Shown here in pieces: positions 29,709-63,974 of a stretch of 64,000 bases of DNA. The notes under the pieces were generated by a model, which worked only from the letters and a program-made list of their open reading frames with translations, did no database searches and was not told the DNA's origin. The translations under genes were made by a program, and so were the position numbers. Position 1 is the stretch's first letter, and each line of letters begins with the position of its first letter. The stretch is taken from assembly GCA_022703585.1 (NCBI GenBank), contig JAKLDJ010000002.1, positions 219,413 through 283,412 of the forward strand, in the 5' to 3' direction. Source of the stretch: Candidatus Omnitrophota bacterium. Lineage in GTDB: Bacteria > Omnitrophota > Gorgyraeia > Zapsychrales > JAKLDJ01.

Positions 29709-30149
29709 TTAGCGGGAGTGCGATTTTTCCCATGGCTCCATCAGCCCTTTAATGACCTTAAAGAGCGGATGAGGCAGAATTTTCTTGGCAGCTAAAAGGT
29801 CCCGATAGCGCTGGCAATCCCGTGTTTTTAATTTCTTCAAAAGATGCCTGAATTCGAAAGCAATCTGACCCCGCGCGACTTTAACGAGATGCGTTTTGGG
29901 CACCGCACGAGATATCTTTCGCGCGTCAAAACAATAACCTCTTTTTTCCGATTCCCTCAACACTGCCAACAGGTAAGAATCAATCGCCGGAACCGGCCGG
30001 GGACATTGCTTAAACCGATCCAGCTGTGGATGGTTTTTATAACCCTTGGTCTTGCCCGTTAAAACTTTTTTTGCTAAGAGCGCTTCTCGCCAAAGCGCGA
30101 CCAACCCCTTGGAATCAAGATACTTGGGATGAATCGACCACAGCCGCAT
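29709..30149 (-). CDS. Putative pyrimidine-dimer DNA glycosylase/AP-lyase family protein.
   Basis: The 146-aa ORF begins MRLWSIHPKYLDSKGLVALWREALLAKKVL, a conserved start seen in proteins annotated as pyrimidine dimer DNA glycosylase. The assignment is from memory, not a search. Confidence 0.45.
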   Translation of the reverse strand: MRLWSIHPKYLDSKGLVALWREALLAKKVLTGKTKGYKNHPQLDRFKQCPRPVPAIDSYLLAVLRESEKRGYCFDARKISRAVPKTHLVKVARGQIAFEFRHLLKKLKTRDCQRYRDLLAAKKILPHPLFKVIKGLMEPWEKSHSR

Positions 30150-48506: not shown

Positions 48507-48731
48507 CTTTTTATTATCAGTCTTCGTATTCGTAAGCTCTCCGCGGCTGGTGTTGATGAATAGCATCTGTTGCTTCATCTGGGCAATAGCCTCTTTACCA
48601 ATCACAAGATAAGTCCCTGGCATCACTGAAATACGCAACCCGACGATCTCGTTTTGGATAAGATCCTCCATGCCGATCTTCTTAAAAACCTTAGGATCTA
48701 CCGTCCTGCCAAGGCCTCTCTCAAATCTTCG
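48507..48731 (-). pseudogene. Remnant of a D-isomer-specific 2-hydroxyacid dehydrogenase gene (NAD-binding-domain fragment).
   Basis: The minus-strand frame reads ...DPKVFKKIGMEDLIQNEIVGLRISVMPGTYLVIGKEAIAQMKQQMLFINTSRGELTNTKTDNKK*. It contains the family's LIxKExxxxMKxxxxLINTxRG signature, lacks both its N- and C-terminal parts, and overlaps the hcp stop codon. Confidence 0.55.
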
Positions 48732-50368
48732 TCAACCGTAGAAATCGGTTTGATATTAAATTTCTCGACAAGGATCTTTAGCACGTTCGGTGATACAAAA
48801 GCCGGCAGAGACGGACCAAGCCGTATATTCTTGATGCCTAAATAAAGCAGCGTCAGAAGAATGCAGACCGCCTTTTGTTCATACCAGGAAAGAATAAACG
48901 ACAACGGCAATTCATTGACACTGCATTTAAACGCACCGGCCAAGGCCGAAGCGATTTTAATCGCCGAATAAGCATCATTGCACTGGCCACAATCCAGCAG
49001 CCTGGGCAAGCCGCCGATCGCACCAAAATCCAAACGGTTAAATCTGAATTTTCCGCAGGCTAAAGTCAGAATGATGCAATTCTTGGGAACTTTCTGAGCA
49101 AATTCCGTAAAATAATTTCTCCCCGGCTTTGCCCCATCGCAACCGCCGATCAAGAAAAATCGCTTGACCGCACCCGCCTTAACCGCCTCGATCACCTTAT
49201 CGGCAACACCCAAAACCGCCTGGTGGCCGAATCCGACGAGAATCGATTTCTCAATTCTGTCTTCTTTAAAGCCTCCCAAGTTTCTGGCCTTGGTGATAAT
49301 TTTACTGAAATCCTTCTTTCCGTTTTTCAGCTCGATATGCCCGACACCAGGCCAGGCAACCAGGCCGGTCGTAAATATCCTGTCCTTGTACGAAGCCACG
49401 GGCTCTTGAATGCAATTGGTCGTCATCAGCACAACCGCCGGTATCCCATCAAATTCTTTCTTTTGATTCTGCCAGGCAGTGCCAAAGTGCCCGACGAGAT
49501 TCTTGTATTTATTAAGCTCGGGATAACCGTGCGCAGGCAACATCTCCCCGTGCGTATAAATATTTACTCCCGCATCTTTTGTCTGCTCTAAAAGTTGCTT
49601 CAAGTCATCCAGGTCATGCCCTGAAACAATAATCGCCGGACCTTTTTTTGTTCCCAAAAGGACTTTGGTGGGAACCGGGTTTCCGAAATGTTTTGTATGC
49701 GCCGTATCCAATATTTCCAGGCATTTTAAATTAACTTTCCCGAATTCCATGATAAGGCTTAAGTAAGCATCGGCTGTTAGAGTATCATCGACCAAGGAAG
49801 CCATCCCTTTATAAAAGAAGGCATTAACCTCCTCGTCTTCTACGCCTAAGACAGCAGCATGGTCGGCATAGGCTGCCATCCCCTTCATCCCGTAGAGAAG
49901 TATTTCTCTGAGGCTCCGGATATCCTCATTAATATTAACGTCAGAGAACAAGCCAACTGCCAAACCCTGACCGAGCAGATTATCTAAAGAATCAGCCGGC
50001 TTAAACTCGGCAGCCTTAGGCAGCTTATCGGAGAAATCGTTGCCGTTTTTATTCTTATAGGCCTTTAAAAACGAGTTCTTGAGATTTTCTCTAACCGTAT
50101 AAGACTTCCTGATCATTCCTGCAATACGTTCGGGGTCAAAATTAACATTGGTGACAGTAGTAAACAATCCCTCAATCAAGAATAAATCCGCCTTTTTCTC
50201 TTTAACCCCTAAATCCCGCGCCATCTTGCCAAAAAAGGCAATGCCCTTCAAACCATGAAGCAGCAGGTCCTGCAAAATAGCCGTATTGGAATCTTTTCCG
50301 CATACCCCTTTTACCGTACACCCTTGCCCTTTGGCAGTTTGTTCACATTGCCGGCACATCATTTCCAT
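48698..50368 (-). CDS. hcp: Hybrid-cluster protein (hydroxylamine reductase).
   Basis: The N-terminal MCRQCEQTAKGQGCTVKGVCGK Cys cluster and the 556-aa length match Hcp. Confidence 0.9.
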   Translation of the reverse strand: MEMMCRQCEQTAKGQGCTVKGVCGKDSNTAILQDLLLHGLKGIAFFGKMARDLGVKEKKADLFLIEGLFTTVTNVNFDPERIAGMIRKSYTVRENLKNSFLKAYKNKNGNDFSDKLPKAAEFKPADSLDNLLGQGLAVGLFSDVNINEDIRSLREILLYGMKGMAAYADHAAVLGVEDEEVNAFFYKGMASLVDDTLTADAYLSLIMEFGKVNLKCLEILDTAHTKHFGNPVPTKVLLGTKKGPAIIVSGHDLDDLKQLLEQTKDAGVNIYTHGEMLPAHGYPELNKYKNLVGHFGTAWQNQKKEFDGIPAVVLMTTNCIQEPVASYKDRIFTTGLVAWPGVGHIELKNGKKDFSKIITKARNLGGFKEDRIEKSILVGFGHQAVLGVADKVIEAVKAGAVKRFFLIGGCDGAKPGRNYFTEFAQKVPKNCIILTLACGKFRFNRLDFGAIGGLPRLLDCGQCNDAYSAIKIASALAGAFKCSVNELPLSFILSWYEQKAVCILLTLLYLGIKNIRLGPSLPAFVSPNVLKILVEKFNIKPISTVDEDLREALAGR

Positions 50369-50383
50369 GTCAATCTCCTTAGT

Positions 50384-50794
50384 TTATTTTCTTGTATTGG
50401 CCGATAGACTCTTAAGCGTAACCGCCCCTAATCTTTCCAAAGCATAATTTTCAATCTTTTTCAGCTCTCCCCTCAAAGGACAGCAAGACTTCTGGGAGCA
50501 GGGTTCTTTAAGGAATACGCATTCACTGACACAGACATCCCCCTGAAAAACTTTTATGATATCCAAGAGCAATATGTCCTGAGCAGGCCGGGCAAGAATA
50601 AACCCCCCTTGATTTCCTTTGGCCGAATCTAAAATCCCGCTCTTTTGCAAAAGCTGGAGTATCTTTCTTAAAAAAGCCCTGGGGATACCCAATTTCTCCT
50701 CGAGATACACGGTTGAAACCATTTTCTCTTTTGATTGCGCGATCTCTCTTAAGGCCCTGACCGCATAATCCGTATCCCTGGTAATCAGCTTCAT
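50384..50794 (-). CDS. Rrf2-family transcriptional regulator (NsrR/IscR-like), probably FeS-binding.
   Basis: It has an N-terminal wHTH (MKLITRDTDYAVRALREIA) and three clustered Cys (CSQKSCCPL). Confidence 0.8.
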   Translation of the reverse strand: MKLITRDTDYAVRALREIAQSKEKMVSTVYLEEKLGIPRAFLRKILQLLQKSGILDSAKGNQGGFILARPAQDILLLDIIKVFQGDVCVSECVFLKEPCSQKSCCPLRGELKKIENYALERLGAVTLKSLSANTRK

Positions 50795-50801
50795 GTCCTA
50801 A

Positions 50802-50828
50802 TGATACTATATAGGTATCATTTGTCAA
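50802..50828 (-). promoter_or_regulatory. Palindromic operator candidate (TGATAC-N7-GTATCA) overlapping the Rrf2 promoter (TTGACA, about 16 nt spacer, TATCAT).
   Basis: tgatactatataggtatca sits 8 nt upstream of the rrf2 ATG, with a TTGACA immediately upstream on the minus strand. Confidence 0.45.
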
Positions 50829-50872
50829 GAAAAAAATAATCAAATAAATATATTAAAATCACGCAGAAAAAC

Positions 50873-51550
50873 CTAAACGCCTCTGAAGAATTTTCGGTAA
50901 TACAAGTACACGGTAAGATTTAAAGAAAGCATCGCGTAGGAATAAAAGAAATCCTCCAGGGGTATCGTTAAGACTCTCACCCCCCATACTGCGGCAGGAT
51001 TGTAGACAACAACCGGCAGGGCCGTCAGGATATAATTAACAATCAAAAAGGGCACGTAGCCCGCGAGTATAAAAAGCCAATACCGCGAAGAGTTCAACAG
51101 CCCCGGAAGAAACCAAAGAGTTAACAACATGGCTGCTCCGCAAAACATAAGGACCGTAAAAGTGTATGCCCTTTCCTGATTAAAGAAAGCAAGGGCAAGA
51201 AATCCCATCGCCCATACCAAAAATACAGCCCTTGGAATTCTGAAACCGCCTTCCTTAATATAAAGCGCGATAACCTCATAAATAAAAATACAACTAAACG
51301 GCACCACCACAAAAAACAGCACCTCTTCAAGCGGAAGCCCGAAAAAGTTCATACCCAGCACATACCGGGCATTAAAACCCCAATCTCCCCGCGCAGTCGC
51401 CATAACATCCCAGACAATAAAAACCGTCCCCACCGATAGAATCGATAAGAATAATTCCGGAAAACGCCTATAATATCCAATTTTCTTTTTAAAGCTGAAA
51501 AGAAAAGGAAAAATAATAACCAAAAAATCAATCCACAAGTAAGTGCTCAT
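50873..51550 (-). CDS. Lycopene cyclase domain protein (fused CrtYcd-type).
   Basis: The 225-aa polytopic protein has two PLEE-containing repeats, characteristic of heterodimeric-type lycopene cyclases. Confidence 0.7.
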   Translation of the reverse strand: MSTYLWIDFLVIIFPFLFSFKKKIGYYRRFPELFLSILSVGTVFIVWDVMATARGDWGFNARYVLGMNFFGLPLEEVLFFVVVPFSCIFIYEVIALYIKEGGFRIPRAVFLVWAMGFLALAFFNQERAYTFTVLMFCGAAMLLTLWFLPGLLNSSRYWLFILAGYVPFLIVNYILTALPVVVYNPAAVWGVRVLTIPLEDFFYSYAMLSLNLTVYLYYRKFFRGV

Positions 51551-52134
51551 TTTTCCAATAATTCCTTCCGGAGATTGCCCAGAGAACTTCGCTGCTGTTT
51601 TGTTAGCTTTCCGTTTCTTAGCAAAAATTCAATCATTTCTAACTGGGTCTTTAGATCAACTCTTGCATAATCTTTACGAACCAGTGACAAATAAAGAGCA
51701 TTTACATCCTGAAGCCGTTTCTCTCCCACCCCAAAAAAAGGCGGCAGATGAGACAGGGTTGCGAACCGGACAAAACGTACTTCTAAGTCATCAGGATCTT
51801 TGTCGACGGCTTTATCGAGTAATTTTAAAGCCAGAGAAAGGCCGCTTACTTTTTGGGCAGGATTGAAAGAAAATTTGGCTTCAAGCCCTTTGGTCGCTCC
51901 GTAATAGGAAAGCACAATCGCCGGATACTCCTCGGAATCAGCAGGTAATCTAGTCTCGATTAATTTTAGGAGCGCTTTTGTATTTTTTTTACCCTTCTGA
52001 GCCTCCCGAAACTCTTTGCGAAGATATTCCCTGGTTATCGCTACGGATTCCGCTTCGAGTGCTTCTAAGTCCGCCGTCCAACAGGCTATAATAATCGAGA
52101 AAAGAGCAATAAAGAAATAGCGGGAATTTCGCAT
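51547..52134 (-). CDS. Hypothetical secreted protein embedded in the carotenoid operon.
   Basis: The 195-aa ORF has an N-terminal signal peptide (MRNSRYFFIALFSIIIACWTA). Both ends overlap neighbouring genes by 4 nt. Confidence 0.5.
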   Translation of the reverse strand: MRNSRYFFIALFSIIIACWTADLEALEAESVAITREYLRKEFREAQKGKKNTKALLKLIETRLPADSEEYPAIVLSYYGATKGLEAKFSFNPAQKVSGLSLALKLLDKAVDKDPDDLEVRFVRFATLSHLPPFFGVGEKRLQDVNALYLSLVRKDYARVDLKTQLEMIEFLLRNGKLTKQQRSSLGNLRKELLEK

Positions 52135-52137
52135 AAT

Positions 52138-52992
52138 CTAAAACCTGCTACCGAAGAACGTAACAATAAAATAGGCTCTTATTAAAAGCAGTAATTTATG
52201 AAAATCACAAATGCGGACTCGTTTTGATAATAAAAACGCAGCATCAAGATTCTTAATTTTTCTAAAGAGCGCGTTGTAATAAAGATATACCGAATATACC
52301 GCCAGGACATAGCTCCTGGGAATCTTTCTTATGCCGTCCAGCGCTACTTTAAATTCCTCCTCAACCTCGGCCTCCATTCGTTTCTTGGCCGCCTCGTTAA
52401 TATCTTCCTTATTCCTGATTCCCGGTAGATAAATCCGCCCGCGCGCCTCCAGGTCGTTTTTTATATCACGCAAAAAGTTGACCTTTTGAAAAGCCGACCC
52501 CAATTTCCTGGCAGGAACAACCAGCTCCTTAAATAACGGTTCATTCCCGGCGCAAAAAACCTTCAGGCACATGAGCCCGATAACTTCCGCGGAGCCATAA
52601 ACATACCTGTCATAAGAATTCTTATCATGGAATTTAAGCGTCAGGTCCATTTCCATGCTGGCAAGAAATGCGTCAATATACTCGCCATCGATCTTATATT
52701 TCTTAACCACATCCTGAAAGACCTCCAAAACCGGATTAGTCGAAACGCCAGCGCGAATAGCCCCATTAACATCTTTCTTGAATTGCTCCAACAAAATCTT
52801 TTTATCGCAACTTTGAAACGTATCCACAATCTCATCCGCCACGCGAACAAATCCGTATATACCGTAGATGGCATCCTGCGCCTCTTTGGGGAAAACCTTG
52901 ATCCCCAAACTAAAAGAAGTGCTGTAACGGTTCGTCATCAGCCGGCTGACCTCGTAACAGGTCTTAAGATAAAGATCCATGGTCATGGACAA
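52138..52992 (-). CDS. crtB: Phytoene/squalene (4,4'-diapophytoene) synthase.
   Basis: The 284-aa ORF has the YCYxVAGTVG-like region (IYGIYGFVRVADEIVD) and the trans-IPP head-to-head synthase fold. Confidence 0.8.
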   Translation of the reverse strand: MSMTMDLYLKTCYEVSRLMTNRYSTSFSLGIKVFPKEAQDAIYGIYGFVRVADEIVDTFQSCDKKILLEQFKKDVNGAIRAGVSTNPVLEVFQDVVKKYKIDGEYIDAFLASMEMDLTLKFHDKNSYDRYVYGSAEVIGLMCLKVFCAGNEPLFKELVVPARKLGSAFQKVNFLRDIKNDLEARGRIYLPGIRNKEDINEAAKKRMEAEVEEEFKVALDGIRKIPRSYVLAVYSVYLYYNALFRKIKNLDAAFLLSKRVRICDFHKLLLLIRAYFIVTFFGSRF

Positions 52993-54445
52993 TCCTCTCT
53001 AAAACAAGTTTGGAGCCGACAATCACCATCGGCAGTCCGGTTCCCGGCACGGTCGAGGCGCCGACGTAATAAAAGTTTTTTAACTTCTCGTCTTTGTTGG
53101 AGGGCCTTAGGTATCCGATTTGGGTCATTCCGTGGCAAAGGCCTAATCCCGATCCCCGATAGAGATTAAACATTATTCCCCAGTCTTGGGGTGTTAAAAT
53201 CTTCTTGACTAATGTATTTTTTGCGACATCGAAACCAATCCTTTTCGACAAATCACCAACGATATTATCCGCTAAATCTTCCTTGTCGAACCAATCTTTC
53301 TTAAAACGCAGATCCGGCACCGGACAAAGAATCAAAATACTCTCGCAACCCTCCGGGGCATATTCGGGATAAGCCTTTGTCGCCACATTAACATAATAAT
53401 ACGGCCTTTGCGGCGCCATCGCGGAAACAAAAACATTTTTGGCATACCCCTTAAAATTGCTCCCCAGGAAATAATTGTGTTGCATCGCATTATCGATTTT
53501 CCCCTTAACGCCTAAGTAAATCGTAAAAGGCGCCAGGCTCCATTGCATTTTATCCAGGCGCTTTTGACTGAACGCCGGTCTTTGTAAAACTTCTCCGCGA
53601 AAAGATGCCGCGTCGGCATTCGAGATAAAGATATCCGCCGGCCAGCGGCGGCCGGTTTGATCTTCCAGCTCGACGGCATTATTGTCTCTTATGTGAACCT
53701 TCTTTACCTCTGATTCAAAAACAAAATCAACGCCCTTGCTTTTGAGAGTATTAACCAGCGCCTCGACAATCCTATACATTCCCCCTTGCACCCCCCAATA
53801 ACCGTTGTGGCGGAATTCGACATAATTTAGAAGGGAATAAATCGCCGGTGTTCGAAAGGGTGTAGCCCCCAAAAAGAAAGAAACTAAAGAAAAGATGACC
53901 CGTAGCTCCTGGGACGAGAAATTTCTTTCGACCTCTTGCCACATATTCCTGAAAAGATACGGCAGATGTTTAACCGGAACGCTGGCAAGTTTGCCGAGAT
54001 AATCCAGGGGCCCGTAAAAATTAGTTTTGATCACCTTGGTGTCGGTGTCATGAAAAAGCTGCTGGCCCTTGCGTAGATATCTTTCAACCTTCCGCGCGAC
54101 ATCCGGCTCGATATCGGCAAACTCTTTTTCCAGTTTGAAAAGGTCTTTGTGAATTTTGTATGGCCTGCTGCGGCCTTCAAAAAATACCTGATATAGCGGA
54201 TCAAGCTCTCGAAGACCGATGGGATTGGCGATACCGCAACTTTTAAAAAGCTCCTCCAGCTCATAGCTCATACTCATAAATGACGGGCCGATATCGAATT
54301 TAAACCCGTCCAAGACAAGCTGGTTGAGCCGGCCGCCGGGGGTTTTATTCTTTTCTAAAACCGTAACCTTGCACCCCATTGCCGAAAGCCTTAGGGCTGT
54401 CGCCAGGCCACCCAAACCCGAACCGATGATAACAACCTTTTTCAT
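52964..54445 (-). CDS. crtI: Phytoene (or diapophytoene) desaturase, FAD-dependent.
   Basis: It has the N-terminal VVIIGSGLGGLATALRLSAMG dinucleotide-binding motif. The 493-aa ORF matches the CrtI/CrtN family along its length. Confidence 0.8.
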   Translation of the reverse strand: MKKVVIIGSGLGGLATALRLSAMGCKVTVLEKNKTPGGRLNQLVLDGFKFDIGPSFMSMSYELEELFKSCGIANPIGLRELDPLYQVFFEGRSRPYKIHKDLFKLEKEFADIEPDVARKVERYLRKGQQLFHDTDTKVIKTNFYGPLDYLGKLASVPVKHLPYLFRNMWQEVERNFSSQELRVIFSLVSFFLGATPFRTPAIYSLLNYVEFRHNGYWGVQGGMYRIVEALVNTLKSKGVDFVFESEVKKVHIRDNNAVELEDQTGRRWPADIFISNADAASFRGEVLQRPAFSQKRLDKMQWSLAPFTIYLGVKGKIDNAMQHNYFLGSNFKGYAKNVFVSAMAPQRPYYYVNVATKAYPEYAPEGCESILILCPVPDLRFKKDWFDKEDLADNIVGDLSKRIGFDVAKNTLVKKILTPQDWGIMFNLYRGSGLGLCHGMTQIGYLRPSNKDEKLKNFYYVGASTVPGTGLPMVIVGSKLVLERIVHDHGSLS

Positions 54446-54470
54446 GGGCCTTCTTTAAAAGAGTTCTTGG

Positions 54471-54734
54471 CTATCGAACTTTCTGCGGACTGCACAGATG
54501 CGCCGCTGAAACGGCGGTGCGTCCGCAGCTATTACAGATATAGGAAAGTTCTCTGATCTTGTCGTTACACAAATGCCTCTGATCGGCGATTAATGACCCG
54601 CACCAATCGCATTGTGCATCACCGCGCATAATGGGCACGCACAGATGGCCGTCTTTAGTTGTTGTCTGGCGACAGGTGGGGCAATGGTGAGAAGTTTTTT
54701 TGGCAGATTTCTTTACTTTTTTTGCTTTAACCAT
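54471..54734 (-). CDS. Small Lys-tailed Cys/His-rich protein with three tandem CxxC-x9-HLC repeats (putative tri-zinc-knuckle protein).
   Basis: The 87-aa ORF is MVKAKKVKKSAKKTS followed by HHCPTCRQTTTKDGHLC, QCDWCGSLIADQRHLC and ICNSCGRTAVSAAHLC. It overlaps the downstream methyltransferase by 8 nt. Confidence 0.55.
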   Translation of the reverse strand: MVKAKKVKKSAKKTSHHCPTCRQTTTKDGHLCVPIMRGDAQCDWCGSLIADQRHLCNDKIRELSYICNSCGRTAVSAAHLCSPQKVR

Positions 54735-55461
54735 TACGGCTCTCCTTATGTTTTATGGAATTTATTTTCTGAATCAAGAACAAGGCTGGTCTTTTGTCGA
54801 GTGAGATTTCTATCCGCCGCCACTCATTGACGGTGGCGGTTTTGATCCATTGAGTGGGAGCAGTTAAATCACAGGCAACACAAAGCAAGGTCGCCGCCTC
54901 ACAACTGGCGAGAACATCTTTTAGGAGATTATCATTGCGGTAAGGCGCCTCCATAAAGATCTGCGTCTGATTCTCCTGGGCAGAGCGCCGTTCTAAATCT
55001 TTAATCTTTTTGATTCGTAGATTTTTTTCTTTCGGCAGGTACCCGTTAAAAGCAAAATTTTGCCCATTTAACCCCGATGCCATGAGCGCAAGGGTAATTG
55101 ACGACGGGCCGACCAGAGGGATAAGTTCCATGCCATGTTTGTGCGCCAGCAAAACCAAATCCGCGCCTGGGTCGGCAACGCAGGGACAACCGCTTTCGGA
55201 AATAATCCCTGCATTCTTATCTGCGATCGTCTTGATGTATTTTTGAATCTCGGCGGCAGGGGTGTGTTCGTTGAGCAAAAGAAATGTGCAGTCGGCAGCG
55301 GAGAACTGCGGATTTATTCGTTTTAAGAAAACTCTTGCCGGTTTTTCTTCCTCGACAATAAAAAGGCGGATAGACTCGATTGTCCGCGCAATATACTGCG
55401 ACACAACCGAGAAATTCTCTTCGGCAATGACATTAGGAATAAGATACAGTTTTCCCGGCAT
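54727..55461 (-). CDS. Tetrapyrrole-methylase-fold SAM-dependent methyltransferase, RsmI-like (16S rRNA 2'-O-methyltransferase family).
   Basis: GKLYLIPNVIAEE matches the GxLYxVxTPIGN region of RsmI. The ORF is 244 aa. Confidence 0.6.
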   Translation of the reverse strand: MPGKLYLIPNVIAEENFSVVSQYIARTIESIRLFIVEEEKPARVFLKRINPQFSAADCTFLLLNEHTPAAEIQKYIKTIADKNAGIISESGCPCVADPGADLVLLAHKHGMELIPLVGPSSITLALMASGLNGQNFAFNGYLPKEKNLRIKKIKDLERRSAQENQTQIFMEAPYRNDNLLKDVLASCEAATLLCVACDLTAPTQWIKTATVNEWRRIEISLDKRPALFLIQKINSIKHKESRNG

Positions 55462-55470
55462 AAAAAAACC

Positions 55471-56316
55471 CTATGATGACTTTTCCCCTCTTATGCTGAT
55501 CGTCACATTGTTAAAGGGAATTTTCTTTCCCGAATCGGCAATGGCCTGCTCGATTAAGCCTACGAGACCGAAACAGCACGGAACCTCCATGTGGGCGTAA
55601 GTGACAGATTTAATCGTATTATTCTTAATAATCTCCGAGAGCCTCTCTTCATAAATACTCATATCGTCCAGCTTTGGGCATCCGACTAATAAAACTTTAC
55701 CTTGCAATAGGTCTTGATGAAAATCCGCATAGGCAAAGGGTACACAGTCTGCCGCAATCAACAAATCGCAGTTTTCCAAATACGGTGCATGAGGCGGAAC
55801 CAACATGATCTGAACCGGCCATTGACGAAGCTGCGATTCGCCCTTGGGTTGGGCCGATTTTTCTTTGCCCGACGCTTTGGAGCCTTCACGAAGATCCATC
55901 ATCCGCGAACCCGGACAGCCGGAAGGCACCGCCTTAGTAGCAGCACAAGAGGAAGATTTTTCAAGAGGATTCATAATACCTTTTCGGGCAAGATAATCCG
56001 TCGCTTCTTTAAGGTATTCAGTCTCATTATGCTCTTTGAGATGTTCGAGATGCGCCCTGACAACATTAGGGCCTTGTTTGACAATATTAATGATGACTTT
56101 CTCCTCGTCATATTTCTCCGCTTCCCGCTCTTCGATGGTGATCGCACCTTCGGGACAATGACCGATACAGGCGCCTAATCCGTCACAAAATAGATCGCTG
56201 ATAAGTCGCGCCTTGCCGTCAATGATCTGTAAAGCCCCTTCCGGACAATTGGGAATACATAGGCCGCAACCGGTACATTTCTCTTCGTTGATATTAATAA
56301 TTTTTCGTTTAGACAT
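55471..56316 (-). CDS. 4Fe-4S dicluster domain protein with a C-terminal Cys-containing domain of unknown function. The ORF extends to 56547; the likely start is MSKRKI at 56316.
   Basis: The N-terminus has CTGCGLCIPNCP and CDGLGACIGHCP motifs. The C-terminal part has SGCPGS, CPKLDD and VPCCFG motifs. Confidence 0.6.
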   Translation of the reverse strand: MSKRKIININEEKCTGCGLCIPNCPEGALQIIDGKARLISDLFCDGLGACIGHCPEGAITIEEREAEKYDEEKVIINIVKQGPNVVRAHLEHLKEHNETEYLKEATDYLARKGIMNPLEKSSSCAATKAVPSGCPGSRMMDLREGSKASGKEKSAQPKGESQLRQWPVQIMLVPPHAPYLENCDLLIAADCVPFAYADFHQDLLQGKVLLVGCPKLDDMSIYEERLSEIIKNNTIKSVTYAHMEVPCCFGLVGLIEQAIADSGKKIPFNNVTISIRGEKSS

Positions 56317-56336
56317 GAGTCCTCGATGAGCTTGAA

Positions 56337-56374
56337 GGGCGAACCGCCGTTTCTTAAGAAACGGCGGTTCGCCC
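56337..56374. terminator. Perfect 19-bp palindromic hairpin (gggcgaaccgccgtttctt/aagaaacggcggttcgccc) between rbr and the ferredoxin-domain gene.
   Basis: A T-tract (CCTGTTTTTC) follows on the plus-strand side. On the minus strand it sits 19 nt after the rbr stop. Confidence 0.55.
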
Positions 56375-56392
56375 CCTGTTTTTCTAAAACCT

Positions 56393-56971
56393 TTAATAAT
56401 TCTCCGCCAGCATTTCAAAATGCGCTTGGGGATGCCTGCAGGCCGGACAAACGGTGGGAGCGGTTGCACCTTCAACAACATAACCGCAATTGGCACAATG
56501 CCATTTAACCGGTTTATCTTTCTTGAAAACCTTGGCCTCGGCAACATTCTTAATCAATGCCCGATAGCGCTCTTCATGAAATTTCTCCACCTTGGCGATT
56601 TGCGCAAACGTATTAGCCACTTCGGGAAAACCTTCCTCCTTGGCCACTTTGGAAAAATCTTGATAGAGCATCGTCCATTCCATATTCTCGCCGGCAGCAG
56701 CCGCCTCCAGATTGCTTTTTGTGTCGGCTATTTTACCCGCCGGATAGCTGGCGGTAATTTCCGCCTCTCCACCTTCTAAATGGTTAAAGAACATCTTGGC
56801 ATGCTCTTTTTCATTTTCGGCAGTCTCGGTAAAGATATTCGATATCTGCACAAACCCTTCCTTTTTAGCCACGCTGGCAAAATAGGTGTAGCGGTTACGC
56901 GCCTGCGATTCGCCGGCAAACGCCGCTAAAAGATTTTTCTCCGTTTGTGTTCCTTTAATCGACTTTCCCAT
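56393..56971 (-). CDS. rbr: Rubrerythrin (diiron four-helix-bundle domain plus C-terminal rubredoxin-like domain).
   Basis: The 192-aa ORF has ExxH diiron motifs and a C-terminal CANCGY...CPACRHP. Confidence 0.9.
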
Positions 56972-57009
56972 TTTCTTTCTCCTTATTTAATCAGTGTTTA
57001 AGAAAATAT

Positions 57010-58203
57010 CTAACCGGCCTTAACTATCTTGGCAAATTCCTTTCCGTATTCATAACACCGCTTAAGCTCATTCTCATCCGGAACATACTGTACAGACAAA
57101 CCCGGTTGCGCCAAGGTAATCCCCGCTTCCTTAACGATCTCTTCGATAGCCTTAACCGCCCCGCCGGCCCAACCATAGGAACCGAAGGCGCAAGCGACTC
57201 TATTTCTCGGCTTTAATCCTTTTAAGAAAGCCAAAAATCCTCCGATAATCGTCAGCATATCGTTATCGTGGGTCGAAGAACCAAACAAATACCCCTTGGC
57301 GTCGAGCATCTGAGTAATGATTTCGGTGCGATCAGTTACTGCCACGTCATAAAGCTTTACTTCCAGCCCGGCATCGGTTAATCCCTGGCTCATCTTATAC
57401 GCCATTTTCTCGGTAGCACCCCACATGGTTTCATAGGCAATAACGACCTTGGGCTTGGTTTTGTTCTGGGACCAGCCGGTGTAAGCATCAATGGCTTTTT
57501 TGATATCGCGGCGCCAGATAATACCGTGGCTGGGCGCGATCATCTTAATAGGAAGCCCCGACGTTTTAATCTCTTCCAGCTTCCTGGCGATAACAGAGCT
57601 TAGAGGCCAAAGAATATTCGCATAATACTTTGCGTCTTCTTCCATCAGAACGGCCGGATCAGTTTCATCATCAAACCTCTCGGAAGTAGCATAATGCTGA
57701 CCAAAGGCATCGTTAGGCATCAAGAGCTGTTCTTCCGGGCAATAAGTAAACATGCTGTCCGGCCAATGGATCATGGCCGCTTCGATAAACTGAAGCGTCC
57801 TTTTGCCTAAATTGATTTTATCGCCGGTTTTCACAACTTGAAAATCCCAATTGCCGTAATAATGTTTTTGCAAGCCCTCCTTGCATTTTTGCGTGCCGAA
57901 CATTTTTGCCTTGGGGCACAGCTTAAGAAGTTCGGGATAAGCGCCGGAATGATCGGTTTCAACGTGATTGGCGACGATATAATCGATCTTTCCCGGGTCA
58001 ACCACCTGGCGGATATTTTCAATCAATTCTTTGGCAAACGACGCATGCACCGCGTCCACCAACGTAATCTTATCGTCGACGATAAGATACGAATTATACG
58101 TCGTCCCCCTCTTGGTGGTATAGGTATGCCCGTGAAAATGGCGCATATTCCAATCAATGGCGCCGACCCAATAGATATTTGATAGTATTTTTACGGCAGA
58201 CAT
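57010..58203 (-). CDS. Flavodiiron protein (FprA / rubredoxin:oxygen oxidoreductase / NO reductase type).
   Basis: The 397-aa ORF has a metallo-beta-lactamase-like domain (HVETDHSG) and a C-terminal flavodoxin domain. Confidence 0.9.
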   Translation of the reverse strand: MSAVKILSNIYWVGAIDWNMRHFHGHTYTTKRGTTYNSYLIVDDKITLVDAVHASFAKELIENIRQVVDPGKIDYIVANHVETDHSGAYPELLKLCPKAKMFGTQKCKEGLQKHYYGNWDFQVVKTGDKINLGKRTLQFIEAAMIHWPDSMFTYCPEEQLLMPNDAFGQHYATSERFDDETDPAVLMEEDAKYYANILWPLSSVIARKLEEIKTSGLPIKMIAPSHGIIWRRDIKKAIDAYTGWSQNKTKPKVVIAYETMWGATEKMAYKMSQGLTDAGLEVKLYDVAVTDRTEIITQMLDAKGYLFGSSTHDNDMLTIIGGFLAFLKGLKPRNRVACAFGSYGWAGGAVKAIEEIVKEAGITLAQPGLSVQYVPDENELKRCYEYGKEFAKIVKAG

Positions 58204-58225
58204 AATAAGCCCCTTTCCTTAAACC

Positions 58226-58927
58226 TTAATAGCCCTGGAACTGTTCGGAAACAATGTTTATCCCCGGAACCAAAAGCTCTTCAGATAAAATCCTTCTCAT
58301 CGCCGTTACCATCGCCGGCGGCCCGCAGACATAAAATTTTCTCTCTATAAAATCAGGAATACTGTCTTTAATTATCTGGCCGGTAATAAATCCTACTTTA
58401 CAGGAAAATTTATCGCACGGCTCCATCAATACATGCAAAACCCTAAGATTCCCGCACTGATTTTGCATTTGGTCCAGTTCATCTTTAAAGGCAATCTCAT
58501 GAATATTCTTATTACCGTAAAATAAGACCATGTCGTTTTTAATGTTCTTATCAACCGCGTATTTAAAGATGCTGCGGATAGGGGCAATACCGATACCGCC
58601 GGAAAGAAACGCGATTCTGGGCGCTTTTTCGTCTAGGATAAATTTGCCGAAAGGATACTGTATTTTTACGGAATCGCCCGGCTTTAGATGATTAAGCGTC
58701 CGGGAAAATTCGCTGTCGGTAATTTTCTTGGTAAATTCAATATAGCCTTTTTCCGTCGGCGAACTGGAAATCGATAAATATTTCTTTATCTCTTTATCAG
58801 TTTTAACTGTCACGGAAAGAAACTGGCCGGCTTGAAAATCAGCCGTGGCACCCACATCCACGCGAAAGCTCTTGACACTGGGAGTTCTTTGAATAACTTC
58901 CTTTATCGTTCCTTCTGATTCCGGCAT
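58226..58927 (-). CDS. FNR-like FAD/NAD(P)H oxidoreductase (PyrK/siderophore-reductase fold), candidate NAD(P)H:rubredoxin reductase.
   Basis: A 233-aa protein with a flavin-binding beta barrel and an NAD-binding domain (IAFLSGGIGIAPI). Confidence 0.7.
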   Translation of the reverse strand: MPESEGTIKEVIQRTPSVKSFRVDVGATADFQAGQFLSVTVKTDKEIKKYLSISSSPTEKGYIEFTKKITDSEFSRTLNHLKPGDSVKIQYPFGKFILDEKAPRIAFLSGGIGIAPIRSIFKYAVDKNIKNDMVLFYGNKNIHEIAFKDELDQMQNQCGNLRVLHVLMEPCDKFSCKVGFITGQIIKDSIPDFIERKFYVCGPPAMVTAMRRILSEELLVPGINIVSEQFQGY

Positions 58928-60887: not shown

Positions 60888-62441
60888 TTACTGCAGTTTA
60901 TCGTTTCGGATATAATACTTTTGTTTCCCGATATATCTCGGCGCATAGTTTTCCTTAAAGAATTCAGCAAGTTGTTTGTAATCCGCAGCTGTGATCAACT
61001 CTTTTTGAAATAGATCCAAAAGGAAATCTTGATTGCGATAACGGCAGGTGACAACTGCCGGCCGGGTTGTTATTATTTTGTCCGCAATCCCGGTGCGCAG
61101 GGCATCATTCTTGAGTGCTGAAAAATCATCGATAAAATCGTATTGCCAGACAGAATAAAGTCTCGTCGTGTCATGAGCAAAAATCGGATGCCTAGGCAAG
61201 AAAGCCAGGCAGGTATCTTCCCCGCAATAATCCATAAGACGAGAAAATGTTTTTCTATCAGTAAGGTAAATGGAGCTATTGCCGCTTAATAAGTCTGCTG
61301 CGGACGAGGATAAGAAAATAGCGGCAACTACTCCGAAAATAGCGGAGCGCTTGGCCAGAGATAAAGTTTTTTCAAATACACCCAAAAGGGGGCAACCGCA
61401 TCCGATGATGGCACAAATAAAGAACCAAAAACCAAGATAATATTCTCCGCTAACATCGGTCGTCGTAGTTAAAGAGCTTGCGGTGCTCAGGCAGAAAGCT
61501 ATAAACAGCAACGTGCTCGATGCCCATAATTTTCCAAAACGGCTGAAAATACTATACGCCCCCCACCCCCCCAGTGCCAAAACTTCCAAGGGAAACATAA
61601 CTTTAAAAACAACTATTTGCGAATTAAAACCGAACATCCAGAATAAATAATCTTTAAGGATCCCATGACTGACTAAATAAGATAATAAAGGCAGGCAACC
61701 TATGGCAAGGCCAAGAAAATACAAGACCAGTTTCAACGGACGTTTTTTCTTTTCTCCTAAGAATACGGCAATAACCGGCAAGAAAACCAGTAAATATTGC
61801 TTAGGAACAAACGAGGCCGCTAACGAAAATGCTATTCCCGCAAAAAAACTAGGCAGGACCCTTTTGCCGGAAATCTCAAATGAGAGGCGTACGACCGCAA
61901 GCAGAAAGAAAATCATAAATATATCCGGACGGAGCAGCAAGTACTGGGCTGTTGAAGCAACGCTCGAAAGCACCAAAAGATAAATGGATAACTCGGCTTT
62001 TTCTTTCCAGGCCTGCCGGGCAATCTGCCAGCCAAGGAGAATATTGATGGCAAACATGAAGCCGGAAACAATACGCAGAATATCAAACATGACTCCGGAC
62101 GACTTCAACCATGAAACAAACGGAGCTATTAAAACTGACAAGAAAGGAGAATGATGTTCGAAGAAATCTTTGTAGGGAGTCAACCCTTGCGAAACAAGCC
62201 AGCCAAGATGAAGATGCCCTGATTCCACATGAGAAGCACCCATAAAAATCCCCAAGAATACTAAGAATACCGTATTTAAAACAACAAGCGGCCAGAAGCT
62301 AACCGTTAATTTCTTCCCAAAACGCGAATAAGCCCAAAGCCCGCTTATGATGGCGATGAGCAGAAAAATTAATACCTCCATGGGCCGATAGAATCTAACG
62401 AAAGAATCAATCATCGCGCTTTCTTTTTGGCAGCATAACAA
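60888..62441 (-). CDS. Polytopic membrane protein, GT-C-like putative glycosyltransferase (ArnT/PMT_2-like), paralog 1.
   Basis: A 517-aa protein with about 11 TM helices in the N-terminal two-thirds and a soluble C-terminal domain ending YYIRNDKLQ. It is about 50% identical to the next gene. Confidence 0.5.
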   Translation of the reverse strand: MLCCQKESAMIDSFVRFYRPMEVLIFLLIAIISGLWAYSRFGKKLTVSFWPLVVLNTVFLVFLGIFMGASHVESGHLHLGWLVSQGLTPYKDFFEHHSPFLSVLIAPFVSWLKSSGVMFDILRIVSGFMFAINILLGWQIARQAWKEKAELSIYLLVLSSVASTAQYLLLRPDIFMIFFLLAVVRLSFEISGKRVLPSFFAGIAFSLAASFVPKQYLLVFLPVIAVFLGEKKKRPLKLVLYFLGLAIGCLPLLSYLVSHGILKDYLFWMFGFNSQIVVFKVMFPLEVLALGGWGAYSIFSRFGKLWASSTLLFIAFCLSTASSLTTTTDVSGEYYLGFWFFICAIIGCGCPLLGVFEKTLSLAKRSAIFGVVAAIFLSSSAADLLSGNSSIYLTDRKTFSRLMDYCGEDTCLAFLPRHPIFAHDTTRLYSVWQYDFIDDFSALKNDALRTGIADKIITTRPAVVTCRYRNQDFLLDLFQKELITAADYKQLAEFFKENYAPRYIGKQKYYIRNDKLQ

Positions 62442-62474: not shown

Positions 62475-63974
62475 TTATTTTAACTTATCGTTACGGATAT
62501 AGTATTTCTCTTGCCCAATGCGCTTTCGCGTATAATTTTCTTTGAAGAACAAAACAAGCTCCTTATAATCAGCCGCTGAAATCAACTTTTTCTGGAACAA
62601 GTCCAGGACAAAATCTTTCTTACGAAAAGAACAGACAACAACCGCAGGCCGAGAGGCCATGATTTCCTTTAAAACCCCCTGGCGCATGGCATCCTGTTTT
62701 AGGGGAGAGAAACGCGTAATATAGTGATACTGCCAGTCTGAATACAGCCGCGTGGCATCGTATGTAAACACCGGATGAAGAGGCAAGAAAACCAAACAAT
62801 GATCGTTCTTGCAATATTTCATCAGTTCCACCACGGCTCTTTTATCTTGCGGAAAATTCTTATCGCAAAATTCCCCCACATACATTATGCCGGGAATTAA
62901 CAAAAGGCTAAAAAAGACGCCGATAATAACCGCCCGCCTTACCCGGGAAGAGACTCTTTCGAACACCTCCGGGATAGGGCATCCGCTTGCAATAATCGCA
63001 CAGAGAAAAAGCCAAAAAGCGAGATAATGCCCCCAGCTTACGGCAATCGTACTCGTTAAGGAACTGAGCGTACTTAAGCAGAAGGCTACGATCAAAAGCA
63101 GGGTTTTTGTTCTGCGTGATTCACGAAAGCTCTTTAAAAGGCGGTATGCTCCCCACCCCGCAAACATCCCTATCATAAAAGGAAAGAACACTCGGAAGAC
63201 AATAATCTCCTTATTAAATTCAAATACCCAGAAAACAAAATCCTGGAAAATACCGTGGCTCATCAGATAGGATAGTAGCGGCAGACTGCCCACTGCGAGC
63301 CCGAGAAAATAGGCAGCCAGTTTCCCGGTACGCATTCTTTTTTCCCCCAAGAAAACAGCAATCAGGGGCAGGAAAAACAAGAAATACTGTTTCGTCATAA
63401 AAGAGGCAGCCAAAGAAAATGCTATTCCCGCGAGGAAGCTGGGCAAGACTCTTTTGCCGGGAATCTCCATCGATATCAATATCACCGCCAATAGAAAGAA
63501 CGTCATGAAGATATCCGGCCGTAACCAAAGATATTCAGCTCCAATAGCGGCGCTGGAGAGCACCAAAAGATATACAGCAAGCCTGGCCTTGTCTTGCCAG
63601 GCTTTCCTGGCAATCTGCCAACCGAGATAGGCATTTAATAAGAATACCAGCCCCGAAATAATACGAATGATATCAAAAATCACCGGCGACGGCTCAAACG
63701 ACTTGACCAGAGGAATCAGCATTATCCATAAAAATGGCGATTGATGCATCCAGAAATCGTTGTAAGGGACAAATCCCCGCGACATAAGCCATGCCGCATG
63801 AAGATGTTCTGTTCCGTCGTGATCTATCTGCGATACGGCAGCCCAGACCCCAAGCAATATGAAATTTGCAACAATCACCGGCACGATGCTGACTGTCAAA
63901 TTCCTTCTTAAGCGTTGGTATGCCCAAAAAGTGATTGTTGTAACCATCGATAGAAAAATAAGAAGATTGATCAA
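62475..63974 (-). CDS. Polytopic membrane protein, GT-C-like putative glycosyltransferase, paralog 2 (tandem duplicate).
   Basis: The 499-aa ORF shares its architecture with paralog 1: both have a conserved FDI(L/I)RI(V/I)SG block and a C-terminal YYIRNDKLK tail. Confidence 0.5.
   Translation of the reverse strand: MINLLIFLSMVTTITFWAYQRLRRNLTVSIVPVIVANFILLGVWAAVSQIDHDGTEHLHAAWLMSRGFVPYNDFWMHQSPFLWIMLIPLVKSFEPSPVIFDIIRIISGLVFLLNAYLGWQIARKAWQDKARLAVYLLVLSSAAIGAEYLWLRPDIFMTFFLLAVILISMEIPGKRVLPSFLAGIAFSLAASFMTKQYFLFFLPLIAVFLGEKRMRTGKLAAYFLGLAVGSLPLLSYLMSHGIFQDFVFWVFEFNKEIIVFRVFFPFMIGMFAGWGAYRLLKSFRESRRTKTLLLIVAFCLSTLSSLTSTIAVSWGHYLAFWLFLCAIIASGCPIPEVFERVSSRVRRAVIIGVFFSLLLIPGIMYVGEFCDKNFPQDKRAVVELMKYCKNDHCLVFLPLHPVFTYDATRLYSDWQYHYITRFSPLKQDAMRQGVLKEIMASRPAVVVCSFRKKDFVLDLFQKKLISAADYKELVLFFKENYTRKRIGQEKYYIRNDKLK

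Follow-up and report, generated by a model that had tools for sequence, protein, structure and literature searches.

We analyzed a 64,000-nucleotide stretch of DNA from a Candidatus Omnitrophota bacterium (hereafter, the window), in which a minus-strand open reading frame (ORF) encodes an 87-aa protein, MVKAKKVKKSAKKTSHHCPTCRQTTTKDGHLCVPIMRGDAQCDWCGSLIADQRHLCNDKIRELSYICNSCGRTAVSAAHLCSPQKVR, that consists of a Lys-rich N-terminal tail followed by three tandem Cys-rich knuckles. As judged by sequence comparison, this protein represents a widespread, previously undescribed family of small bacterial proteins and domains that share three homologous knuckles. The best interpretation we can offer, which is tentative, is that the triple knuckle may be a zinc-containing module that binds nucleic acid in the response to photo-oxidative and UV stress.

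The ORF is real: it is preceded by a strong Shine-Dalgarno site and belongs to a conserved family. Eight Lys residues are found among the first 15 residues, and the protein has an overall pI of 9.4. Each knuckle comprises about 25 residues, and the repeat period is also 25. The candidate metal ligands are C18, C21, H30, and C32 in the first knuckle; C42, C45, H54, and C56 in the second; and C67, C70, H79, and C81 in the third. The second knuckle contains an internal aromatic residue, W44, which is replaced by Y, F, W, or H elsewhere in the family. An earlier note on this DNA, made from the letters alone, had described the Lys-rich tail, the three tandem repeats, and translational coupling to a methyltransferase gene through an 8-nt overlap; all of these features were confirmed, and the strand, which that note did not give, is minus. 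The spacing of C-x2-C-x9-H-L-C proposed there was one residue too long, the actual pattern being C-x2-C-x8-H-L-C.

A word-indexed search retrieved 18 clusters, one of which was identical to the window protein (P0001, from a Candidatus Omnitrophota metagenome-assembled genome (MAG); P and L numbers are our own labels). All nine Cys residues were invariant among these 18 close homologues. Profile search of 1.84 billion cluster representatives yielded 262 proteins at E<=1e-3, of which 117 also passed E<=1e-10. The Cys spacing, 2-10-10-2-10-10-2-10, was nearly constant among 139 members, only the first linker being variable. When profiles of the individual modules were compared with one another, HHalign probabilities reached 97-98%, indicating that the repeat is genuine and not a chance pattern.

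In an alignment of 112 sequences, the ligands of the first knuckle were almost invariant (C18 in 111, C21 in 112, H30 in 111, and C32 in 110), as were those of the second (C42, C45, and C56 each in at least 111, and H54 in 110) and the Cys residues of the third (C67 and C70 in all 112, and C81 in 111), together with G71 (111) and R72 (109). The nine Cys, H30, H54, G22/G46/G71, R72, P34/P83, and L31/L80 were each kept in at least about 85% of the sequences, and the basic positions R53, K59, and R72 were likewise conserved. Position 79 is His in only 24 of the 112 members, indicating that the conserved ligand set consists of nine Cys and two His, and that the third Cys3His site is a trait of the window's sub-family. 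Accordingly, the three Cys3His sites proposed in the earlier note are present in the window protein, but do not describe the family as a whole. Degenerate members, which were checked for ligands lost together, were few and closely related. We defined the family by nine Cys at a spacing of 2-10-(8-13)-2-10-10-2-10, with a His two residues before the third Cys of both module 1 and module 2, and a third CxxC followed by G-R. The window protein has all of these features, and scored 99 bits (E 2.9e-23) against the family profile.

We then scanned one genome per GTDB species, using the alignment of close homologues as the query. The family locus was found in 42 GTDB species, all of them MAGs, from at least seven phyla; the carrier groups include Omnitrophota, Planctomycetota, Sumerlaeota/BRC1, Elusimicrobiota, Armatimonadota, Clostridia, Deltaproteobacteria, and PVC-group bacteria. 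One peptide pattern designed for another sub-clade matched 502 metagenome contigs. The possibility that the ORF is not conserved in relatives, raised in the earlier note, is contradicted by these 42 species and by the 262 cluster representatives.

Pfam and NCBIfam scans of the window protein reached no model at threshold. The Pfam models DZR_2 and DZR scored 19.8 and 17.3 bits, against gathering cut-offs of 27.0 and 27.3, and a tandem-duplicated relative, P0031, just reached 27.0 bits in the same test. Similarly, distant members and the knuckle parts of fusion proteins gave only sub-threshold matches to generic zinc ribbons. We found no description of the family in the literature on dodecin, Omnitrophota, flavodiiron proteins, and bacterial tandem zinc-finger proteins. 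Because no solved-structure relative was obtained either, the remark in the earlier note that the family was not recognizable is borne out; membership in a known rubredoxin-like family, which it had also considered, is not supported, as no rubredoxin match was obtained in Pfam or NCBIfam. The family is new and unannotated but not new as a category, since small metal-binding proteins with CxxC knuckles are a familiar kind; its three-fold C-x2-C-x8-(H)-x-C architecture is unusual, and its fusions and genomic contexts are distinctive.

An AlphaFold2 (AF2) model based on 112 sequences (pLDDT 84, pTM 0.62) predicted three beta-hairpins with a CxxC in each turn, together with two helices, a short one in the second linker and another of a single turn in module 3; a model based on 18 sequences (pLDDT 61) was too poor for use. 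Judging from the ligand pattern, each knuckle most likely holds one structural zinc, coordinated by Cys3His in knuckles 1 and 2. Knuckle 3 would most likely provide Cys3His in the window protein and Cys3 in most relatives.

Knuckle domains are fused to a variety of partners. Flavin-binding domains are present at the N-terminus in 14 of the 42 GTDB species, nine loci encoding dodecin and five encoding a PNPOx-like domain of FMN-binding type. One further locus encodes a weak TudS/DUF523-like domain and another an unknown N-terminal domain of 300 residues, and the knuckle proteins of the remaining GTDB loci stand alone. In one protein (P0030), a receiver (REC) domain is followed by the knuckle domain in the position of an output domain. 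Fusions to a C-terminal Hsp20, to rubredoxin-desulfoferrodoxin (superoxide reductase, SOR), and to a CN-hydrolase with a histone-H1-like tail were each found once, and tandem duplications with 18 Cys also occur. Lys/Ala/Pro-rich tails with a net charge of at least +5, located at either terminus and comparable to or much longer than that of the window protein, are present in 42 of 139 members (about 30%). One such tail matched Pfam HC2 (histone-H1-like nucleoprotein) at E 3.5e-7, which is below threshold.

UV-lesion repair genes lie beside the knuckle gene in three independent lineages. In L010, L026, and L034, a gene for a YbgA-like protein (DUF523+DUF1722) is followed by a PNPOx-knuckle fusion, by uvdE directly downstream, and by a PNPOx gene. 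In L032 and L030, a dodecin-knuckle fusion has a DUF72 gene upstream and a gene for a pyrimidine-dimer glycosylase (Pdg) 24-30 nt downstream, and in L022 both DUF72 and Pdg are encoded within 6 kb. UV-damage endonuclease is a close relative of DUF72, which adopts a TIM-barrel fold (PMC11791011).

Other relatives lie among genes for oxygen defence. In the clade characterized by the peptide DPRHVCKPK, the genes are ordered as nitroreductase, an unknown lipoprotein-like gene, the knuckle gene, flavodiiron protein (FDP), NifU, and PmbA/TldD; the distance from the knuckle gene to the FDP gene downstream is 63-394 nt in all 26 loci with enough downstream sequence, and none of these 26 loci contains a rubredoxin-like ORF. 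The P0132 context consists of a Fur/PerR-family gene, DUF2400, the knuckle gene, and rubrerythrin, and in L037 a rubrerythrin gene also adjoins the knuckle gene. P0181 is surrounded by genes for DJ-1, three rubrerythrins, encapsulin, a thioredoxin-like protein, rubredoxin, and ODP, and P0182 by genes for rhodanese, ferredoxin, hybrid-cluster protein (HCP), AhpC, OsmC, and ferritin. A Flavodoxin_2/FMN-reductase gene begins 15 nt downstream of the knuckle gene in L040 and L045, and in L005, L022, and L023 the knuckle gene is translationally coupled to a gene for an aldo-keto-reductase/4Fe-4S protein. Overall, flavoproteins are the commonest denominator of the partners and neighbours (dodecin, PNPOx, nitroreductase, FDP, Flavodoxin_2/FMN reductase, FNR-like reductase, and CrtI). 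All-against-all clustering of the neighbours in the close sub-family revealed no universal partner. The family keeps company with oxygen-, light-, and UV-stress genes rather than with the methyltransferase encoded upstream of it in the window.

Some further associations were observed in individual clades. The lipoprotein-like gene of the DPRHVCKPK clade (L054-L133; e.g., L057, positions 283-1080) encodes about 218 aa, is present in 45 of 65 loci, mostly ending 17-29 nt before the knuckle gene, and has no Pfam or NCBIfam match; it is a further closely linked, uncharacterized partner. In a sub-clade containing the motif CSPML (L051/L052, and the P0181 and P0176 contigs), a zinc-type alcohol dehydrogenase of about 345 aa (ADH_N/ADH_zinc_N) is encoded directly upstream in two independent contexts, and a DUF1844 gene recurs nearby.

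On the basis of these observations, the triple knuckle together with the basic tail may constitute a nucleic-acid-binding module, most likely for DNA. Such a module would place the protein, or its fused partner (dodecin, PNPOx-like, SOR, Hsp20, or receiver domain), on the nucleoid when the cell is under oxidative, nitrosative, light, or UV stress. SOR, Hsp20, and the flavin binders, diverse as these fused enzymes are, would be cargo tethered by the knuckle domain, and the protein might serve in regulation, as a protective coat, or as an adaptor that targets damage. In the window, the gene belongs to an operon whose first members are a ferredoxin-like gene and the methyltransferase gene and which runs on into carotenoid genes, inside an island of genes for O2 and NO stress. 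We ranked nucleic-acid binding first because it alone covers the histone-like tails, the conserved basic positions, the REC fusion in which the knuckle domain takes the output position, the DNA-repair neighbours, and the zinc-typical Cys3His chemistry together. The earlier note had likewise suggested nucleic-acid binding from the tail and the knuckles; this part of its proposal is kept as the best single reading, with which the H1-like tails, the REC fusion, and the UV-repair neighbours are consistent, whereas its link to rRNA is dropped.

Several observations weigh against nucleic-acid binding. By itself, the knuckle domain is no more than mildly basic, with a mean net charge of +1.5 (standard deviation 3), and 70% of the members lack a long tail. 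The commonest fusion partners are flavin binders, and many neighbours are flavoproteins or redox enzymes; such partners suit a centre for electron transfer no less naturally than a domain that binds DNA. Most of the FDP adjacency derives from a single, fairly narrow lineage, in which the FDPs have a median identity of 83%, and the immediate neighbours in the window's own sub-family are otherwise highly variable. Foldseek comparison of the AF2 model with the PDB gave no match (best E 0.3, TM-score <=0.26), to DNA-binding folds or others. In PDB sequence searches, the family profile matched tandem DNA-binding C2H2 arrays best, which in itself points towards nucleic acid, namely PRDM9 (E 9.8e-20 over the whole chain), Aart, and ZNF568, with E values of about 1e-7 per three-repeat stretch, and the window sequence alone matched PRDM9 at 4.5e-8. 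However, because the alignments contain a gap in each repeat and misalign the zinc-binding His, and because the recognition helix is missing, these matches represent a pattern analogy and not homology.

As the main alternative, the family could consist of redox-active iron proteins, in which a rubredoxin-like mononuclear center or a small Fe-S center on Cys3His accepts electrons from flavoproteins or NAD(P)H reductases and delivers them to FDP, rubrerythrin, or SOR, thereby substituting for rubredoxin in uncultivated anaerobes. Although we consider this unlikely, it explains the flavin fusions and the adjacency to FDP and rubrerythrin best. The downstream FDP genes in the 26 informative loci of one clade, which lack a rubredoxin-like ORF, the adjacent rubrerythrin genes in the P0132 context and L037, the coupling to the aldo-keto-reductase/4Fe-4S gene, and the closely spaced Flavodoxin_2/FMN-reductase gene all point in this direction. 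In addition, an FNR-like reductase, FDP, rubrerythrin, and a ferredoxin-like protein are encoded within 4 kb in the window, and the PNPOx-like fusions recall the layout of high-molecular-weight rubredoxin, alongside which the dodecin and rubredoxin-desulfoferrodoxin fusions can be counted. It also counts in favour of such a carrier that many class A FDPs have no identified natural donor of electrons (PMC9364112). On the other hand, Cys3His or Cys3 ligands on short hairpins are typical of zinc and not of known electron-transfer iron sites, and module 3 has no fourth ligand in most members. The proteins are basic, often with Lys-rich tails of 20-40 residues, unlike rubredoxins, and they match no rubredoxin model in Pfam or NCBIfam. 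Fusions to receiver, Hsp20, and CN-hydrolase domains and the UvdE, Pdg, and DUF72 neighbours are hard to account for by electron transfer, and a separate rubredoxin gene is present near P0181.

A zinc-thiolate redox switch, or a sacrificial buffer of thiols and metal, is a less probable explanation, and one that is compatible with nucleic-acid binding. Oxidation of the nine Cys by H2O2, NO, or photo-excited flavin would release the zinc; the activity of a partner might thereby be switched, in the manner of Hsp33 or of RsrA, an anti-sigma factor, or oxidants might be scavenged and zinc buffered, as by metallothionein. The oxidative- and nitrosative-stress neighbourhoods, the fusions to the Hsp20 holdase and SOR, the fusions to flavin binders able to generate reactive oxygen species, and the rhodanese, glutaredoxin, and thioredoxin-like neighbours are all consistent with such a role. 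RsrA uses a Cys3His zinc site, and SmtA has a ligand count of Cys9His2, both of which are resemblances only. However, the rigid spacing and the conserved Gly, Pro, Arg, and aromatic positions point to a defined fold and away from a thiolate cluster of the metallothionein type. Moreover, the basic tails, the receiver fusion, and the DNA-repair neighbours are left without explanation, and Pfam, NCBIfam, and PDB searches did not relate the family by sequence to Hsp33, ZAS anti-sigma factors, or metallothioneins.

A more far-reaching form of DNA binding appears improbable to us. In this form, the triple knuckle would be a bacterial zinc-finger array that binds DNA or its lesions, and, together with the fused flavin domains and the UvdE, DUF72, Pdg, and YbgA-like neighbours, would belong to an unknown flavin-dependent system for protection, sensing, or repair of DNA under UV or photo-oxidative stress, of which the stand-alone window protein, encoded between oxygen-detoxification and carotenoid genes, would be the minimal form.

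Finally, the earlier note had proposed that the protein serves the coupled methyltransferase, which it called RsmI-like, by binding rRNA or as a metallochaperone. The enzyme is not RsmI proper, which is the 16S rRNA C1402 2'-O-methyltransferase: it scored 100.5 bits against TIGR00096 (RsmI; cut-off 167.9) and 69.6 against PRK14994 (cut-off 502), and its best solved relative was the uncharacterized 1wyz_A (E 8.7e-64), RsmI (5hw4) reaching only 1.2e-17, which places it in the 1WYZ-type branch of the TP_methylase fold. We searched 6 kb around the gene in 50 related loci by tblastn with seven window neighbours as queries (the methyltransferase, Fer4 protein, rubrerythrin, FDP, CrtI, phytoene synthase, and lycopene cyclase). 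None of the seven had a homologue in these regions, and the methyltransferase in particular was found in 0 of 50, whereas the knuckle gene, used as a positive control, was detected in 50 of 50; thus, the co-occurrence across genomes that the note had suggested checking is absent, and the partnership is not conserved. In the closest relative that is not identical (73% identity), the knuckle gene has a GNAT-like and a BioF-like gene as its neighbours, and a Pfam census of 150 neighbour genes contained four class-I methyltransferases and no TP_methylase. A small Cys-rich unannotated ORF (MECINKEKNIKDCNCSYGGCPRHGLCCECLRYHR...) was observed directly upstream of the closest homologue (L138, positions 441-801). 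A dedicated specificity factor for rRNA binding, or a metallochaperone, for the methyltransferase is therefore highly improbable: the 8-nt overlap, the operon shared in this genome, and a basic character compatible with RNA binding speak for it, but the neighbours are not conserved, the family is fused to many unrelated partners, the enzyme is a paralogue with no assigned substrate, TP_methylase-fold enzymes are to our knowledge not metalloenzymes, and nothing points to either role.

The features of the window are listed in Table 1. On the minus strand, the genes are ordered as FNR-like reductase, FDP, rubrerythrin, a 17-bp hairpin, the Fer4 protein, the methyltransferase, the knuckle gene, crtI, crtB, an unknown gene, lycopene cyclase, and HCP. 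They form a co-directional 10-kb island for O2 and NO stress at 48698-58927 in this Omnitrophota genome, in which the presence of carotenoid genes amid the oxygen-defence genes of an anaerobe is unusual. The window FDP is 44-50% identical to the FDPs encoded directly downstream of family members in another clade. The hairpin lies about 18 nt past the rubrerythrin stop codon, has no T-run on the coding (minus) strand, and is followed by GAGGA and the ATG at 56316. Transcripts may end or be processed at this element, which would separate an FDP-rubrerythrin unit from a Fer4-methyltransferase-knuckle-crt unit. A mechanically called ORF of 358 aa at 55471-56547 (minus strand) is over-called, as it extends into the rubrerythrin gene and runs across the hairpin.

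Table 1. Features of the knuckle gene and its surroundings in the window.
Feature	Coordinates	Strand	Remarks
87-aa ORF, Lys-rich tail and three tandem metal-binding knuckle modules	54471..54734	minus	Identical to P0001 of a Candidatus Omnitrophota MAG
Lys-rich N-terminal tail, residues 1-15 (MVKAKKVKKSAKKTS)	54690..54734	minus	Sequence reading
Module 1, C18-x2-C21-x8-H30-L-C32	54639..54683	minus	Sequence reading
Module 2, C42-x2-C45-x8-H54-L-C56	54567..54611	minus	Sequence reading
Module 3, C67-x2-C70-G-R-x6-H79-L-C81	54492..54536	minus	Sequence reading
Shine-Dalgarno AAGGAG	54742..54747 (read 54747-54742)	minus	7 nt 5' of the ATG at 54734-54732
8-nt overlap ATGGTTAA of the ORF start with the stop codon (54729-54727) of the upstream methyltransferase gene	54727..54734	minus	
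244-aa S-adenosylmethionine (SAM) methyltransferase of TP_methylase fold, 1WYZ-type RsmI paralogue	54727..55461	minus	TIGR00096 below cut-off; 1wyz_A best solved relative
2x[4Fe-4S] ferredoxin-domain (Fer4) protein	55471..56316	minus	Probable start 56316 (281 aa)
Perfect 17-bp palindromic stem-loop GGGCGAACCGCCGTTTC-TTAA-GAAACGGCGGTTCGCCC	56337..56374		Between rubrerythrin and Fer4 genes
Rubrerythrin	56393..56971	minus	NCBIfam NF045767, 300 bits against cut-off 200
Class-A-type FDP, metallo-beta-lactamase-like and flavodoxin domains, no rubredoxin domain	57010..58203	minus	
Ferredoxin-NADP-reductase-type FAD/NAD oxidoreductase (FNR-like)	58226..58927	minus	
CrtI-type phytoene desaturase	52964..54445	minus	Starts 25 nt past the stop codon of the knuckle ORF
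Phytoene/squalene synthase (crtB)	52138..52992	minus	
Lycopene cyclase	50873..51550	minus	
Hybrid-cluster (prismane) protein, HCP	48698..50368	minus	

Elsewhere in the window, a Pdg (pyrimidine-dimer DNA glycosylase) homologue is encoded at 29724-30149 on the minus strand, 24 kb from the knuckle gene, and is 47-52% identical to the Pdg proteins of L030 and L032. Nearby two-component-system genes were considered as partners and dismissed as generic family members with about 25% identity. Two adjacent ORFs of about 500 aa, at 60888-62441 and 62475-63974 (minus strand), had no Pfam match at E<=1e-5. Over the 64 kb, 51 of the 58 ORFs of at least 150 aa lie on the minus strand, a very strong bias in the choice of coding strand.

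Small Cys-rich proteins routinely stay annotated as hypothetical, and the window protein defines a sizeable family of hundreds of clusters at 50% identity. A family model built from the present alignments would give a consistent annotation to hundreds of such proteins. The family bears on the question of whether bacteria deploy a tandem zinc-knuckle array on nucleic acid under oxidative or UV stress; were it an electron carrier, it would provide the missing small donor for class A FDPs and rubrerythrins of uncultivated anaerobes. The recurrent fusion also offers a new handle on dodecin, whose physiological role is still debated. Dodecin is dodecameric, and its fusions would present twelve copies of the knuckle domain on one particle.

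Among known systems, Dps, a dodecameric stress protein that has Lys-rich tails and protects DNA, is a functional analogue only. It has peroxide-stress gene sets and basic tails in common with the family, but is related neither in sequence nor in fold, and its ferroxidase centre is absent from the family. Bacterial metallothioneins (SmtA/BmtA) were not found in the Pfam and NCBIfam scans of the window protein. Rubredoxin is likewise a small CxxC-knuckle metal protein encoded beside FDP or rubrerythrin, and high-molecular-weight rubredoxin, in which a flavin-reductase domain is joined to rubredoxin, parallels the fusions to FMN-binding split-barrel-like domains and to SOR. Rubredoxins are small acidic proteins with one Cys4 site, whereas the family is basic and Lys-tailed and has three Cys3His/Cys3 sites. 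In rubredoxin (PF00301), two CxxCG motifs about 29 residues apart form Fe(Cys)4; each module of the family has one CxxC and an H-x-C, and no Pfam or NCBIfam match to rubredoxin was obtained.

The zinc ribbons of the DZR/DZR_2 and DUF1610/HVO_2753 types also have CxxC hairpins in proteins of about 60-90 residues, and some family members have been so labelled automatically. The HVO_2753 chain 9fhl_C was matched by the family profile at E 1e-3 and by the single window sequence at 0.39; DUF1610 (PF07754), in which four C(P)xCG motifs build two pockets of the zinc-ribbon type, gave no match in the window protein. These proteins consist of two CxxC...CxxC ribbons, without the H-x-C half-site and the three-fold repeat of the family. 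Tandem C2H2 arrays (PRDM9, ZNF568, and Zif268) resemble the family in Y-x-C-x2-C-G-[KR], a conserved Leu, a K-P linker, and the tandem period. However, their period is 28 residues instead of 25, which leaves a 3-residue gap per repeat in the alignment, and the ligand His of the family pairs with a non-ligand His of PRDM9. Their H-x3-H ligands correspond to H-x-C in the family, the window protein having no second His; the beta-beta-alpha recognition helix is absent from the AF2 model, and the Foldseek TM-scores against CTCF and Zif268 were <=0.26. Given the gapped repeats, the ligands that fail to align, and the absence of the helix, we rejected classification as a classical C2H2 zinc finger (C-x2-4-C-x12-H-x3-5-H, beta-beta-alpha).

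The closest resemblance, as far as ligand order and the CxxCG...GH.C appearance can indicate, is to the retroviral-type CCHC knuckles (PF00098) and to their tandem arrays in proteins like eukaryotic CNBP. Retroviral-type CCHC knuckles bind single-stranded nucleic acid. No Pfam match of the window protein to zf-CCHC was obtained at E<=1, and only the ligand order is held in common at that level. The spacing differs, being C-x2-C-x4-H-x4-C in those knuckles and C-x2-C-x8-H-x-C in the family, which has a period of 25 residues, mostly lacks His in the third repeat, and is bacterial, occurring in MAGs and metagenomes only. Nevertheless, both have the order Cys-Cys-His-Cys, a tight CxxCG hairpin, Gly-His before the last Cys, an aromatic residue within the knuckle, and short sites of about 15 residues arranged in tandem in a basic protein.

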